Part shown: one piece after another, positions 491-5,924 of the stretch
Numbering within the stretch: the first letter of the stretch is position 1
Layout: each line of letters starts with the position of its first letter
Source: a virus
Taxonomy: Duplodnaviria > Heunggongvirae > Uroviricota > Caudoviricetes
IMG/VR virus record: IMGVR_UViG_2663763232_000002
Coordinates: 1-9,060 of that record
Length of the DNA: 9,060 nucleotides
Direction: 5' to 3' (one strand)
Notes under the pieces: generated by a model
What the model was told of the DNA's origin: nothing
The model's database searches: none
Seen by the model: only the letters and a program-made list of their open reading frames with translations
Made by a program: the position numbers and the translations under genes

Positions 491-1045
491 TCACTTTGGC
501 AGTCCTGGGATCGATATTTGCGCCTGCTGCTCAAGCCTTTCGATTCTTGCTATGAGTTGCGGTTTTTTGATCCTGCCCCAGCGGTTCAGCAAGCGTCCTG
601 ACATACTGGCAACATCCTTTTCCTTCATGAACTCCAGCATTAACTCGTTGTGCTCTCTTTGGTATGAGTGAGCCATCTCCATCAGCCTGTCACGCATCCA
701 ATTAAATGCTTTGATAAACGCCTCTTTGATGGCGGCAGCTTTTTTGCCGGTAAACGACATGATGATGTACATCGCGCCGTCTTTGGAAATTTCATATTCA
801 ACATACTGATTACCCTTGTGTTCATAGGTAACCCGCGAAAAGTTGCTGGTTAGAAATTCATCCGAACAGTCTAGCTTTTCGATTTTCTGAATGATGTGGT
901 GATGCTGCTTGTCGAAGTAAGCTGCTACCTTGCGGGAGGTTGTGATCACGCGATTACCAGAAACAACCACCATGTCCCGGAAATCGAGATTAGCCAATTG
1001 ATGATTCATAGCGTCTTTACCTTTTAGAAAGTGAGCCTGTCTCAC
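491..1045 (-). CDS. Rha-family phage regulatory protein (antirepressor-like)
   Basis: The N-terminal segment 'VVVSGNRVITTSRKVAAYFDKQHHHIIQKIEKL...YIIMSFTGKKAAAIKEAFIKAF' matches the Phage_pRha signature as I remember it. The ORF-track start at 1045 is a GTG; an in-frame ATG at 1009-1007 with an upstream AAAGG is an alternative start. Confidence 0.7.
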   Translation of the reverse strand: MRQAHFLKGKDAMNHQLANLDFRDMVVVSGNRVITTSRKVAAYFDKQHHHIIQKIEKLDCSDEFLTSNFSRVTYEHKGNQYVEYEISKDGAMYIIMSFTGKKAAAIKEAFIKAFNWMRDRLMEMAHSYQREHNELMLEFMKEKDVASMSGRLLNRWGRIKKPQLIARIERLEQQAQISIPGLPK

Positions 1046-1213: not shown

Positions 1214-1681
1214 TTATTTCAGGCATTGCGTCCTGATGTATTCCTGCAGGTAGTTAACCTGCGCGGTTATCTTGTCGATTCCACTTCGGAGACGGTAATA
1301 ATTGAGTTCAGCATCTGCTGTAAGTCTTGGGCTTTCTCCATCGCCCATGCTGCTGGCTCCGGTCGTTGACTTTGCACAGGTGGCGGCGACTTGCAGCCGC
1401 TTACGGCCAGCAATGACATCGCTATGCAGACGCTCAATGGTTTCTTTCGCATCAGCCAGTTCTCCGGTGTATTTGGCATCCAGTGCAGCGACATCACGCT
1501 GGCGGGTCTGCATGTCTTTAATGGTGGCGGTCGCCAGGAGGAGTTTCTCAGTGGCCTTATCGCGCTGGTCTCTGTAAGTGATGGCGTTGTCGCGGTAGTG
1601 GTTCACGAAGAAAGCCAGTGCGCCGATTAACGCCAGCACCAGCAACTGCAGCCAGTAACGCTTAACCAGTGCGCTAATCAT
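1214..1681 (-). CDS. Rz: Spanin, inner-membrane subunit (i-spanin) Rz
   Basis: The 155-aa product has an N-terminal hydrophobic anchor followed by '[11 protein letters not shown]...[19 protein letters not shown]', closely matching lambda Rz. Its ATG overlaps the endolysin stop (ATGA at 1678-1681). Confidence 0.9.
1267..1452 (-). CDS. Rz1: Spanin, outer-membrane lipoprotein subunit (o-spanin) Rz1, embedded in Rz in the +1 frame
   Basis: Internal ATG at 1452 gives a 61-aa product '[33 protein letters not shown]...' with a signal peptide, a lipobox (LAVSG|C) and a proline-rich mature region, as in lambda Rz1. It lies wholly inside Rz. The ORF-track entry 1267..1497 is the same frame with a spurious upstream extension. 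Confidence 0.8.
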
Positions 1682-2127
1682 GACAGGAACAGAGCTCGCT
1701 CTGCCTCCCGCCGACGTGTCAGCCCATTCAGCACCTTCCCACCAGCTTTATTCCAGCGCAGGAACTCATCGGCTGCACCAGCGTAATCTCCGGCGTTGAG
1801 TTTTCGCAGGAGAGTCGATGTCGACAATGACCGCGCACCGAGGTTATACGTGAACGACACCAGGGCATCGAACTGGCCTTGTGTCAGCTTCACCCTGACA
1901 ACTTTCAGCACGTCATTCTCATAACCAACAAGCCCTGTTTTCAGAAGCCTGTCAGCGGTTTGCTGGTCGATAGTCATACCGCGCTTTACTGGCTTTCCGT
2001 CAACCGGATGGGTCCAGCCATAGCCGATGGTCCACGGCGCATCTCCCGTTCCGGGGTCGGGGTAAGCAGTCAGCCGACAACCTTCAAATTTTTTTATCAG
2101 AGCAATTCCGTCAGGACTGGTTTGCAT
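1678..2127 (-). CDS. Endolysin, T4/P22-type lysozyme (GH24 muramidase)
   Basis: Catalytic-region pattern '[22 protein letters not shown]' (Glu, then Asp 8 residues later, then Thr 5 further) and the C-terminal 'FTYNLGA....[19 protein letters not shown]....GL..RR..E' resemble phage 21/P22 lysozymes. There is no N-terminal SAR/TM segment, so it depends on the holin. The ORF-track start at 2154 is TTG; I call the ATG at 2127-2125 with an upstream GGGAG. Confidence 0.85.
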
Positions 2128-2434
2128 CGTCAACTCCCGCCTTTTTTGCTGCAAGTTTTTTAATCAAATTGCCGATCGAATCGGTGCCGATGTATCCAAT
2201 AAAGACGCTGGCTATGTAGGCGAGGTTGCTGCTCAGGCCGATAAAGTCCAGAAGGTCACGAACGAACCAGGCAATCATCGCGCACATCAGCGCATCAATT
2301 AGCGTTTTTGTTACCGCGCCGCCGTTATAGCGACCACGCAGATACGCCATGATAAAAGCCAGCATTGCACCAATACCCTGCTCCTTGGCGGCAAGTAGCG
2401 CAGCAATGAAATCTTGTTTGTATGGCATTTTCAT
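2111..2434 (-). CDS. S: Class I holin, lambda S family, with dual-start motif (holin/antiholin)
   Basis: The 107-aa product '[39 protein letters not shown]...' is near-identical in pattern to lambda S, including the Met1-Lys2-Met3 dual start. A GGAGG Shine-Dalgarno lies 8 nt upstream. The ORF-track extension to 2512 starts at a TTG and is not supported. Confidence 0.9.
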
Positions 2435-2458
2435 AGGCCTCACCTCCGATTTTTCGGA
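2435..2458 (-). promoter_or_regulatory. S translation-initiation region: stem-loop overlapping the Shine-Dalgarno (sdi-like)
   Basis: Minus strand reads 5'-TCCGA-AAAA-TCGGA-GGTGAGGCCT-ATG: a 5-bp stem whose 3' arm overlaps the GGAGG Shine-Dalgarno, directly before the Met-Lys-Met dual start. This is analogous to the lambda S sdi structure that sets the S107:S105 ratio. Confidence 0.4.
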
Positions 2459-2540
2459 TGGCGCTGTGTGTGTATGAAAAGGATCAGGCTTCACTGGCTG
2501 GATTTTCAACAAAGCACGTAGTGATTGATTCCCGTGAGCC

Positions 2541-2567
2541 TGAAATAAAAAACCAGCTCAAGGCTGG
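2541..2567 (-). terminator. Candidate intrinsic terminator between the tRNA pair and S
   Basis: Minus strand reads 5'-CCAGC-CTTGA-GCTGG-TTTTTTATTT-3': a 5-bp stem (4 G:C), 5-nt loop and 6-T tract. The stem is short, so strength is uncertain. Confidence 0.4.
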
Positions 2568-2623
2568 AATGTTAGGGTGTGGCAATGTCAGCTCTGCGGC
2601 TGAAGATACCCTGGCTGGGTTTT

Positions 2624-2699
2624 TGGTGCCGGTTAACGGATTTGAACCGCTACCTATTCACTTACAAGGCGACCGCTCTACCATTGGAGCTAAACCAGC
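2624..2699 (-). tRNA. tRNA-Thr (anticodon UGU), phage-encoded
   Basis: Hand-folded 76-nt cloverleaf on the minus strand: acceptor GCTGGTT/AACCGGC (one G.U), U8, D-arm GCTC-CAATGGTA-GAGC with G18G19, anticodon loop CU-UGU-AA, T-arm AGCGG-TTCAAAT-CCGTT, discriminator A, encoded CCA. Deviations: C where A14 is expected and a G:A at 27:43. Confidence 0.55.
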
Positions 2700-2704
2700 A
2701 TGTT

Positions 2705-2779
2705 TGGCGGGACAGCGTGGACTCGAACCACGATAAGAAGGTTAACAGCCTTCCGTAATGACCTTTATACGACTGACCC
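2705..2779 (-). tRNA. tRNA-Asn (anticodon GUU), phage-encoded
   Basis: Hand-folded 75-nt cloverleaf on the minus strand: anticodon arm GAAGG-CUGUUAA-CCTTC (same loop as E. coli tRNA-Asn), T-arm CGTGG-TTCGAGT-CCACG, 4-nt variable loop, discriminator G, encoded CCA. The acceptor stem GGGTCAG/CTGTCCC has a U4:U69 mismatch and the D-stem has a 13:22 mismatch. It sits 5 nt upstream of the tRNA-Thr. Confidence 0.6.
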
Positions 2780-2783
2780 AAAT

Positions 2784-2825
2784 AAAAAAAGCCACCGTTG
2801 CAACTTAAGAGTCACTAACGGCAGC
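2784..2825 (-). terminator. Candidate tR'-like leader terminator between Q and the tRNAs
   Basis: Minus strand reads 5'-GCTGCCGTT-(17-nt loop AGTGACTCTTAAGTTGC)-AACGGTGGC-TTTTTTTATTT: a 9-bp stem (7 Watson-Crick plus 2 G.U) followed by a 7-T tract. The T tract ends 4 nt before the tRNA-Asn 5' end. Confidence 0.45.
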
Positions 2826-2829
2826 TTAT

Positions 2830-2866
2830 GCGAATAGTGTTGCTCATTTGCTCAATGATGTCAACA
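2830..2866 (-). promoter_or_regulatory. Candidate late promoter pR' / Q-utilisation region
   Basis: A perfect -35 hexamer TTGACA on the minus strand at 2864-2859, seven nt after the Q stop. No convincing -10 at 16-19 bp spacing (AACACT, ACACTA and CACTAT are the options). The position, directly downstream of Q and upstream of a leader terminator, matches lambdoid pR'. Confidence 0.3.
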
Positions 2867-2870
2867 CGTT

Positions 2871-3359
2871 CTATGCTACATGTTTAATTTTCTCTACACG
2901 TTTCCGGTTTTTAAACGCACTATCCAGAACTGGGTAAATCATAAACAACGAAGCATTGAGGATTTCGTCAACTTCCCGGCGACAGGTTGCGAGCGATGGT
3001 TTTTGAATACGCCCGCCGCCCCGGCATAACATCTTGCGAGGTCTTGCGACACGATGATAGTAAGATGCAATGGCATGCTTGGAAGATCCATGAGCGTAGT
3101 AGCTGAGGAGGATGCCAAAGGCTTTCTTGTCAATGCACATGACGGAATCGACGACCTGAGAAATCAACATTCCATCATCATCATTACACATTGGCCTTGT
3201 CATAACTCTTCCCGGCTCTACGCTCTCCATGAACTTCGCTATTACGCTGCTCATGCGCTTTTCCAGACGACCTGAATAAACCCATGCGCCCCACAGTTCA
3301 AGCCAGCCATTCAGCCAATCGTGCTGTTCTTTGGTGAGGTTTAGTTCTCTTATGCTCAT
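2871..3359 (-). CDS. Q: Late-gene antiterminator Q (Q family of E. coli lambdoid prophages, not lambda-Q type by sequence)
   Basis: The 162-aa product 'WLELWGAWVYSGRLEKR...MTRPMCNDDDGML...SYYAHGSS...RRE' matches, from memory, the Q antiterminators of E. coli lambdoid prophages. Position is canonical, between ninH and the lysis cassette. The ATG overlaps the ninH stop (ATGA, 3356-3359). Confidence 0.75.
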   Translation of the reverse strand: MSIRELNLTKEQHDWLNGWLELWGAWVYSGRLEKRMSSVIAKFMESVEPGRVMTRPMCNDDDGMLISQVVDSVMCIDKKAFGILLSYYAHGSSKHAIASYYHRVARPRKMLCRGGGRIQKPSLATCRREVDEILNASLFMIYPVLDSAFKNRKRVEKIKHVA

Positions 3360-4801: not shown

Positions 4802-5343
4802 GCCGCCCTCCTGACGCCCTGCCCGATCGCCATCAATGCCACTTTGGATACGGTAGTAAACATCCGTCGAGGACTGATGAACGGTCGCCAAATCAGCAGC
4901 ATGGAGCCTTTGCTGTTTCCCTTTTTCTCCAGCCCTGTCGATGGTTCGATAAAATTAATCCGTCCATCAGTGATAATACGAACTTCGTCAACACTCTCCA
5001 GAGCCTTGCTGAACCATCCGACTGACATATCCTCTGGCACAAGCATCACTACCGTCTGTCGCTGTTGTATGCACTGCTCAGCGGCTTTTTCCACCCACGG
5101 CCTGATATTGCTGTACGGTGGGTTATTCCAGATTGCACCGTGGCTTATCCACTCAGAATTGAGCGCGTTGTCAGCCTCAGTTAGCCAGTGAGCGCACAGA
5201 GCATTTTTGTCGCTCGCTGCCGAATCCAGCCAGAATCCAAACTCAATATCCAGTGCATCAAAAAGCCAGAGCGGCGTTTGCCAGCAGTCCTTGTCGTGTG
5301 CTGGCGTATTTGATTTGATAGTCATGCAGCCCGATCTCCCCAT
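4798..5343 (-). CDS. Phage DNA N6-adenine methyltransferase (Dam-like, orphan)
   Basis: '[28 protein letters not shown].......L...W....[17 protein letters not shown].......Q.VVMLVP' carries the NPPY catalytic motif IV and matches the phage Dam (PF05869-type) pattern. No cognate restriction gene is adjacent. An alternative ATG at 5325 overlaps the HNH stop as ATGA and may be the true start. Confidence 0.85.
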
Positions 5344-5924
5344 CTCGCTTTCATTTTTTCATTTGCAAATCGCCAGAATCTTCCTTTGTGATATGAGCTT
5401 TCGCCATTACAGCAACGACTAATTGACGAACTATCAAATCCTTCTCTGACAGCATCCATAGCTGCTTCATAATAAACCTCCTCCCCAGTTTTCATGTCAG
5501 TAGAAATAACAGCTTTACTGGCAGGATGGTCACCACTAAATTTACCTAGCGATATAGGTATTCTTCCATTTTGTTTATATCCGTGTTTTGAGTTTTCAGA
5601 ATGTGATACCCATTCAAGGTTATCAGCCCTATTGTCATCTCTTCGCCCATTTTTGTGATTAACTACCAAGCCATCACAGAACCCTGTACAGAATGCTTTC
5701 GCAACTATCCTGTGGGCGCTGTATTTCTTACCGTATACCTTTATTTGAAGATATCCTGTCGACTTGCACTTGAATGGTTTTACACTAGTGCCATTAATTA
5801 TTTTCTTATATGGCCTCTGTCTGGTTGATGTTACTGTAACTTCCCTCGTAATAGACCTAAAATTTCCTTTATTGCTAACCTGATAAAATGGAATCCCTTC
5901 GATATCTACCCAAACCTCAATCAT
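5322..5924 (-). CDS. Free-standing HNH homing endonuclease (NUMOD4 + HNH_3-type)
   Basis: N-terminal NUMOD4-like 'EVWVDIEGIPFYQVSNKGNFRSI'; HNH core 'H-KNG-RRD-DN-RAD-NL-EWVSHSE-N-SK-H'; C-terminal 'F.S...AA...G.....IS.CC.G...S..G..WRF', typical of phage HNH endonuclease DNA-binding tails. GGAGG Shine-Dalgarno before the ATG at 5924. The gene body is markedly AT-rich. Confidence 0.85.
   Translation of the reverse strand: MIEVWVDIEGIPFYQVSNKGNFRSITREVTVTSTRQRPYKKIINGTSVKPFKCKSTGYLQIKVYGKKYSAHRIVAKAFCTGFCDGLVVNHKNGRRDDNRADNLEWVSHSENSKHGYKQNGRIPISLGKFSGDHPASKAVISTDMKTGEEVYYEAAMDAVREGFDSSSISRCCNGESSYHKGRFWRFANEKMKARWGDRAA

Follow-up and report, generated by a model that had tools for sequence, protein, structure and literature searches.

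A phage 21-type tRNA-Asn/tRNA-Thr cassette in the late leader of a lambdoid virus, with conserved irregular pairs and a likely role in replacing nuclease-cleaved host tRNAs

Toprim anti-phage nucleases destroy host tRNAs, and two of them are of concern here. P2 Old cleaves the paired CNG motifs at 28–30 and 40–42, in each case after the C; its main and lethal target is the host tRNA-ThrU(UGU), while Lys(UUU), Asn(GUU) and Val(UAC) tRNAs are cut more slowly (Govande et al. 2025, NAR, PMC12445682). Phage tRNA-Thr(UGU) genes rescue cells from P2 Old, and the tRNA-Thr of phage 21 (tRNA-Thr21) has itself been assayed; it protects cells, is almost fully resistant at site 1 and restores ACA decoding in vivo, the rescue from Old being partial and the colonies small (PMC12445682). 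For a tRNA to be resistant, its anticodon stem has to be shortened and a CNG motif altered as well, for which the exchange C28U/G42A is named (PMC12445682). AriB, the nuclease of the PARIS system, cuts tRNA-Lys(UUU) as well as tRNA-Thr(UGU) and, more weakly, tRNA-Asn(GUU) between positions 40 and 41 of the sequence U36-A-A-U-C; its cleavage is blocked by changes at U39 and position 41 and impaired by a change of U16 in the D-loop (Belukhina et al. 2025, PMC12409363).

The tRNA cassette in the late leader of phage 21-type viruses is likewise already known and annotated. The same Asn/Thr pair is annotated in phage 21, Sf6, SfI and BTP1, the cassette is also present in HK446 and in many P22-like Salmonella phages, and it has been discussed in the genome papers of SfI (PMC3636060), phage L (PMC8022706) and epsilon34. 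The phage L paper states the expression route of the tRNAs as unknown (PMC8022706). Here we describe an ordinary member of this class in a stretch of viral DNA of 9,060 nt, referred to as the window, and discuss what the pair may do for the virus.

Pfam and related assignments identify the minus strand of the window as a lambdoid nin region that leads into the beginning of the late operon, with the gene order primase/helicase, NinB, NUMOD4/HNH endonuclease, Dam, NinE, YbcO, RusA, NinH, Q, tRNAs, holin, lysozyme, Rz and a Rha-family regulator (late features in Table 1). The pair lies after the pR' leader terminator, downstream of Q and upstream of the lysis genes, and both tRNAs are homologous to those of the known cassette. 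The original prediction had placed the tRNAs between a late-leader terminator and the holin gene, in the cargo slot of Stx phages, and this order is the one seen. Two other genes of the window may be noted: a NUMOD4/HNH homing-endonuclease-like ORF (5322–5924, minus strand) lies between ninB and the Dam methylase gene, a similar gene interrupting the replication and nin regions of prophage L094, and a Rha-family regulator (491–1045, minus strand), which ends in an ORF11CD3 domain at its C-terminus, directly follows the Rz gene. In lambda-like phages this post-Rz site is often occupied by accessory genes such as bor.

Table 1 Features of the late region of the window, in the direction of transcription
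Feature	Position	Strand	Characteristics	Source
Q21-type late antiterminator gene	2871..3359	minus	162 aa; 98% identical to phage 21 Q; Pfam Phage_antitermQ, 87 bits	
Late promoter pR'	2829..2864	minus	-35 TTGACA at 2864..2859; transcription start 2829	coordinates transferred from phage 21 (OL657228.1)
Q-binding element ATTGAGCA/AATGAGCA	2856..2841	minus		coordinates transferred from phage 21 (OL657228.1)
Leader terminator tR'	2780..2827	minus	17-pair hairpin followed by T7ATTT	fold; terminator annotation in phage 21 and Sf6
tRNA-Asn(GUU)	2705..2779	minus	75 nt; CCA encoded; U4·U69, U13·U22; discriminator G73	ARAGORN, Rfam, own segmentation
tRNA-Thr(UGU)	2624..2699	minus	76 nt; CCA encoded; C14, G27·A43, U28-A42, G30·U40; rare U40 allele	ARAGORN, Rfam, own segmentation
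Second terminator-like hairpin	2543..2567	minus	CCAGC-CTTGA-GCTGG (2567..2553) followed by T6ATTT; 56 nt after tRNA-Thr, before the holin gene	terminator scan
Lambda-family holin gene S	2111..2434	minus	MKM dual start; Pfam Phage_holin_3_1 (PF05106), 103.5 bits; first late protein gene	
Lysozyme gene	1678..2154	minus	downstream of the holin gene	
Rz gene	1214..1681	minus	downstream of the lysozyme gene	

Exactly two tRNA genes were found in the window by ARAGORN, both on the minus strand and at the predicted coordinates, so that the tandem Asn-GUU and Thr-UGU genes of the original prediction stand as described. With cmscan scores of 55.3 and 55.4 bits for Asn and Thr (E = 4.8e-10 and 4.5e-10) against the RF00005 gathering score of 29, both genes pass the threshold for bacterial elongator tRNAs by about 26 bits. 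A reading on the plus strand was rejected; the plus-strand ORFs 2458..2736 and 2579..2758 are mechanical artefacts. The two genes are separated by a spacer of 5 nt. Both have the standard features that had been read from the letters (a 7-nt anticodon loop with U33 and A37, a T-loop of the form GGTTCRANTCC and an encoded CCA), and the irregularities that had been pointed out, U4·U69 in the acceptor stem of tRNA-Asn and the missing A14 and mismatched 27:43 of tRNA-Thr, are each seen in the cmscan alignment and in our own segmentation, from which all irregular positions were read in our own numbering. tRNA-Asn in addition has a U13·U22 opposition and a 4-nt variable loop, together with the complete set of tertiary nucleotides (U8, A14, G18-G19 and the T54-Psi55-C56 motif). 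tRNA-Thr retains U8, G18G19 and the T-loop, has C14 in place of the expected A14 in the D-loop CAAUGGUA, and combines the G27·A43 mismatch with the wobble pairs U3·G70, G30·U40 and G50·U64. Its C14 is kept in about 167 of 177 copies of the family, which suggests that it is either tolerated or selected. The identity elements of the E. coli tRNAs are G34-U35-U36 and G73 for Asn, and G1:C72, C2:G71, G35 and U36 for Thr; in our segmentation the known elements of both are kept in the window tRNAs. Both genes most likely encode functional elongator tRNAs.

The kinship with phage 21 (OL657228.1) is close and sharply bounded. The two are identical from pR' with its Q-binding and pause elements through the leader and tR' to tRNA-Asn, a region that in phage 21 is annotated and has been studied by experiment, and they also share gene order and 5-nt spacer. 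Over bases 2900 to 2624 (277 nt) the window is 98.2% identical to phage 21 and SfI, and all 5 mismatches fall inside tRNA-Thr, which matches that of phage 21 at 71 of 76 positions and differs by A26G, C40U, G45A, G59A and A70G, one of these changes lying in the anticodon stem; tRNA-Asn is identical at 75/75 positions to the copies of phage 21, Sf6 and phage L. The exact limit of this homology to phage 21 is the 3' end of tRNA-Thr, beyond which the window has a holin cassette of the lambda S type whereas phage 21 has a pinholin and a SAR endolysin. In many P22-like Salmonella phages homology to the window begins at the transcription start, and these two edges mark the cassette as a mosaic module of its own.

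A megablast search with the region matched 93 phage records, and matches occur in 369 of 5,426 complete E. coli genomes, where RefSeq labels them tRNA-Thr and tRNA-Asn. A scan of genome contigs with a 20-mer from the Asn D-arm yielded only 6 loci of low diversity. This cassette of enterobacterial phages is also found in metagenome-assembled genomes that bear the names Segatella copri and Collinsella sp. (L089, L093), most likely as a binning contaminant. Among 80 IMG/VR loci with a near-identical Q, 47 carry Asn and Thr, 2 Asn and Gly(UCC) and 2 Asn alone, and in 29 no tRNA was called; since the cassette is lacking altogether from 31 of these 80 Q21-type loci, it is dispensable. In 28 of the 29 loci lacking a tRNA a long hairpin element directly follows tR' in place of the tRNA genes. 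On this comparison the position behind tR' serves for cargo in general, and the tRNA pair is one accessory module that it can hold. The replacement element (L005:3558-3670 and 27 others, e.g. L007, L010 and L015), which is absent from the window, measures about 80–95 nt and consists of the conserved long stem arms GCACAACAGGTAAGAGCA ... TGCTCTTATCGTTGTG around at least three different central inserts; its fold is predicted at -36 kcal/mol (z = -4.7), and an Rfam search with it gave no match. The tRNA content of the slot varies too: in some Q21-type prophages, one of them in Escherichia albertii, tRNA-Asn is followed by tRNA-Gly(UCC) and tRNA-Thr is missing (L033:1388-1462, L064:3740-3814, L092:5632-5706), and Klebsiella phages have arrays of Asn-Phe(GAA)-Thr-Arg(UCU), extended in some cases by Gly, Tyr, Ser or Met.

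The terminator-like hairpin with a T7 tract that had been noted directly upstream of the tRNAs is borne out as tR'; its 17 pairs fold with -20.2 kcal/mol (z = -6.1), and none of 200 shuffled sequences was as stable. Its T7ATTT tract ends one base before position +1 of tRNA-Asn, a spacing shared with annotated phage 21. A promoter of tRNA-Asn's own was considered and dismissed: the T-tract abuts +1 and leaves no space for one, and a generic sigma-70 scan, which also missed pR', found no promoter between tR' and tRNA-Asn. With no room for a promoter after tR', the tRNAs must be transcribed from upstream and through the terminator. The original prediction had made their expression dependent on Q antitermination. 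The route from pR' through tR' is indeed the obvious one, given the lack of promoter room, and it agrees with the annotated region of phage 21. The tRNAs would then be made whenever RNA polymerase passes tR', be it by Q antitermination or by leakage and N-modified read-through, and host tRNA-processing enzymes would cut them out of the transcript.

Downstream of tRNA-Thr the second hairpin has only 5 pairs and is weak on its own, yet its stem variants in related loci of the E. coli and Klebsiella type are compensated (CCCGC/GCGGG, GCCCGC/GCGGGC, GCCTGC/GCAGGC) and keep the T-tract, and phage L has an annotated terminator at the same place. As predicted from these features, the tRNA array is bracketed by two terminators, an arrangement that would let read-through of tR' make the tRNAs without expression of the lysis genes. 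Carried further, this suggests a function in the prophage, in which leakage through tR', halted at the second terminator, would supply the lysogen with both tRNAs for translation or for protection of the lysogen from nucleases that other elements bring in, rather than for lytic growth. The transcriptome of the BTP1 lysogen fits this picture in that the two tRNA genes are set apart in the list of highly expressed prophage loci (PMC7067206). So does the conserved second terminator, whose compensated stem separates the tRNAs from the lysis genes. The pR' promoters of lambdoid phages are moreover constitutive, in agreement with the annotation of phage 21-type systems. Leakage would, however, have to overcome tR', whose hairpin is strong and whose U tract is long. 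The BTP1 reads may stem from induced cells, since spontaneous induction is frequent in this phage, and read counts of tRNAs in standard RNA-seq are unreliable. A role confined to the prophage state strikes us as very unlikely.

Whether the irregular pairs signify decay was the second question raised by the original prediction. U4·U69 is shared by 165 of 179 tRNA-Asn copies and G27·A43 by 176 of 177 tRNA-Thr copies, both pools containing duplicates because some IMG/VR contigs stand in two sets; copies selected on the Thr anticodon arm conserve that arm by construction, and we rely instead on the loci anchored on Q or on the Asn D-arm, in which the conservation of G27·A43 is the same. In the tRNA-Asn of Klebsiella phages U4·U69 is kept though the nearby pairs 6:67 (A-U to G-C) and 7:66 (G-C to A-U) have both switched, and it is kept again in a form of tRNA-Asn that is altogether different in its D, anticodon and T arms. 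An error of reading, to be exposed by orthologs with compensated stems, is rejected, as the orthologs have the same mismatches and only 3 of 179 Asn copies regain a wobble pair at 4:69. Neighbouring pairs, in contrast, show compensated change. The acceptor stem of tRNA-Thr has 13 variants, 11 of them fully paired; G1:C72 is missing from 3 copies and C2:G71 from 1. Counted over distinct alleles, the diversity of which is low, 3 pairs are changed on both sides in each tRNA against 0.4–0.6 in column shuffles, and 89.5% and 94.8% of the cells in the two tRNAs are paired against 20–55% for slid structures; the compensated changes fall in the acceptor, anticodon and T stems. Across phages of E. coli, Shigella, Salmonella, Shimwellia and Klebsiella the sequence is nearly invariant.

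A decayed or non-functional relic, left for example by integration at a tRNA site or by imprecise excision and persisting passively, perhaps as a linker for recombination between Q and the lysis genes, would account for the non-canonical U4·U69, U13·U22, C14 and G27·A43, for the mosaic joints at both ends of the cassette and for its absence from 31 of 80 Q21 loci. Damaging changes do exist in a few lineages, and the second gene of phage L is not called a tRNA. The covariance-model scores are nevertheless high, the stem changes compensated, the identity elements kept and the sequence almost invariant among the phages of different hosts, while ACA decoding by the phage 21 ortholog suffices for the rescue of cells (PMC12445682). 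Recent capture from the host was rejected as well, the window tRNA-Asn being only 62% identical to asnT and the tRNA-Thr 72% to thrU of MG1655. Because the irregular pairs are fixed while neighbouring pairs co-vary, decay is rejected for the family; the pairs are, as far as the alignments tell, conserved features, and the relic reading is largely refuted and the least probable of those considered here. Two lineages deserve separate mention. In one prophage lineage (L072 and L078, L116 being the same contig as L072) tRNA-Asn carries U33A and tRNA-Thr G1A. Each change is probably inactivating, a hint that the cassette as a whole occasionally loses its function. In Salmonella phage L (MW013503.1; L085:781-852) the gene after tRNA-Asn is annotated as a tRNA-Leu(UAA) of 72 nt; the 5' strand of its acceptor stem reads GCTGGTT as in tRNA-Thr, its anticodon loop apparently has 4 nt and ARAGORN does not call it; it could represent a derivative that is either decayed or unusual.

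If the tRNAs are functional, one benefit could be codon supply, and the original prediction had cast them as late-phase codon-supply genes. We compared prophage L094, which has an identical cassette, and the ORFs of the window with a 50-kb sample of MG1655 as host reference. Per 1000 codons, ACA is used 16.9 times in the early genes of the prophage, 8.1 times in its late genes and 11.0 times in the window ORFs as against 5.4 times in the host sample, corresponding to enrichments of 3.1-, 1.5- and 2.0-fold; the corresponding values for Asn codons are 43.6, 50.9, 41.5 and 37.7, which amounts to a 1.37-fold enrichment in the late genes (p = 8e-5). A cassette that did nothing but top up the ACA and AAC/AAU pools, with its irregular pairs neutral, would agree with these enrichments. 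On the other hand, the ACA excess lies mainly in the early genes, whose translation precedes Q-dependent expression, and late-phase supply as originally proposed is possible but weak, the modest Asn and ACA excess of the late genes speaking for it and the distribution of ACA against it. The host has several gene copies for tRNA-Asn, and AAC/AAU are not rare codons. SfI has an ACA bias (17.3% versus 7.1%) and no Asn bias, its authors finding no reason for the Asn tRNA (PMC3636060), and 24 of the 25 Asn codons in the major capsid gene of phage L are AAC (PMC8022706). Pure supplementation also has no account of the fixed G27·A43, C14 and U4·U69 beside co-varying pairs, nor of the match between this pair of tRNAs and two targets of Toprim nucleases. 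We regard it as unlikely as the sole explanation; a mild codon-supply benefit for ACA and AAC/AAU would be compatible with a replacement role and at best secondary to it.

At the cleavage sites of the nucleases the pair departs from the host tRNAs. We compared the anticodon stems (27-31/39-43) with those of the MG1655 genes. Host thrU has ACUGA/UCAGU, with CUG at 28–30 and CAG at 40–42; the window tRNA-Thr has GUCGC/GUGAA, with UCG and UGA at these positions, an unpaired 27:43 and neither C28, C40 nor U39. Host asnT has GCGGA/UCCGU, with CGG and CCG, whereas the window tRNA-Asn has GAAGG/CCUUC, with AAG and CUU, and lacks C28, G42 and U39. The site of AriB, UAAUC|A in the host tRNA-Thr and UAAUC|C in the host tRNA-Asn, is changed to UAAGU|G and UAACC|U, respectively, and the D-loop of the window tRNA-Thr differs from that of the host at positions 14–17, position 16 included. 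The window tRNA-Thr therefore bears the sequence pattern of resistance to P2 Old (UGU anticodon, unpaired 27:43, altered CNG motifs), and the phage tRNA-Asn is without both the Old and the AriB cleavage motifs of the host tRNA-Asn(GUU). The original prediction had offered as a further option that the imperfections alter identity or processing. The known identity elements are kept, and the unpaired 27:43 with C28U/G42A corresponds to the published Old-resistance pattern, and of the options then named an altered handling of the tRNA comes closest to the published evidence. With only 62–72% identity to the host genes a different anticodon stem is to be expected from divergence alone, and the Klebsiella-type tRNA-Asn retains an intact CNG pair (CAG/CUG) in 13 copies, so that escape from Old is not universal for Asn. 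tRNA-Lys(UUU), the primary target of AriB, was not found by ARAGORN in the window or seen in the related cassettes, and the cassette alone can consequently not neutralise the PARIS system that has been studied.

We consider it likely that the cassette of the window serves to replace host tRNAs destroyed by Toprim anti-phage nucleases with a nuclease-resistant pair. The nucleases to be countered would be those carried by competing P2-like prophages and satellites: Old, which would deplete mainly host Thr(UGU) and more slowly Asn(GUU), and AriB, with Lys(UUU) and Thr(UGU) and, less strongly, Asn(GUU) as its victims. The unpaired G27·A43 together with U28-A42 in tRNA-Thr would confer resistance as in the phage 21 ortholog. 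Protection and resistance to cleavage are demonstrated for the phage 21 allele; by extension, the window allele and the accompanying tRNA-Asn may be resistant as well, and Asn may have a part in the replacement.

The tRNA-Thr allele of the window has a history of its own. U40 occurs in 4 viral contigs, against at least 120 for C40, and the query has matches of 99% or more in at least 10 E. coli records. Compared with the common G26 allele it has four changes (positions 40, 45, 59 and 70), all in the 3' half of the gene. Over the 400 bases that follow downstream, all six U40 loci agree with the window at 395–397 positions, whereas 4 of the 6 differ from it upstream of the leader. Given the shared downstream bases and the clustering of changes in the 3' half, the U40 allele moves together with the lysis module that follows it, and a joint made by recombination within the tRNA-Thr gene or at its edge is likely. 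The change C40U removes the cytosine before the Toprim cut.

A bolder version of the replacement idea would make the Asn/Thr pair a dedicated lambdoid counter-measure to the Toprim nucleases Old and PARIS. tRNA-Asn would then be a second resistant replacement, U4·U69, C14 and the Thr D-loop would act against recognition, U40 would represent a further step in the arms race at the 40|41 cut shared by site 2 of Old and AriB, and the two terminators would allow lysogens to make the tRNAs without the lysis genes. We put this forward tentatively, as a possibility on the doubtful side. More generally, imperfections are no ground for taking phage tRNA genes for pseudogenes; those described here have been conserved, and at least one is part of a nuclease-resistance pattern already in the literature.

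Three described systems place the window cassette in perspective. The ileZ-argN-argO cargo of Stx phages occupies the same slot, between Q/tR' and stx/S, and depends, as here, on read-through of the late leader terminator; it differs in its Ile-CAU and Arg anticodons, which serve rare codons, and in its Q type, and the window has no toxin genes. The anti-PARIS tRNA set of the T5 type belongs to a virulent phage with a large number of tRNAs, in contrast to a temperate lambdoid phage with two, and its sequences are unrelated to the window tRNAs beyond the general tRNA fold. The two sets nonetheless have two of three anticodons in common, and both window tRNAs carry substitutions at positions 39 and 41, tRNA-Thr also at 40. 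The third is the Old-resistant tRNA-Thr21, of which the window tRNA-Thr is a direct ortholog; the window allele differs in lacking also C40, the cytosine before cut site 2, and the two share the UGU anticodon, the unpaired 27:43 and the exchange C28U/G42A.
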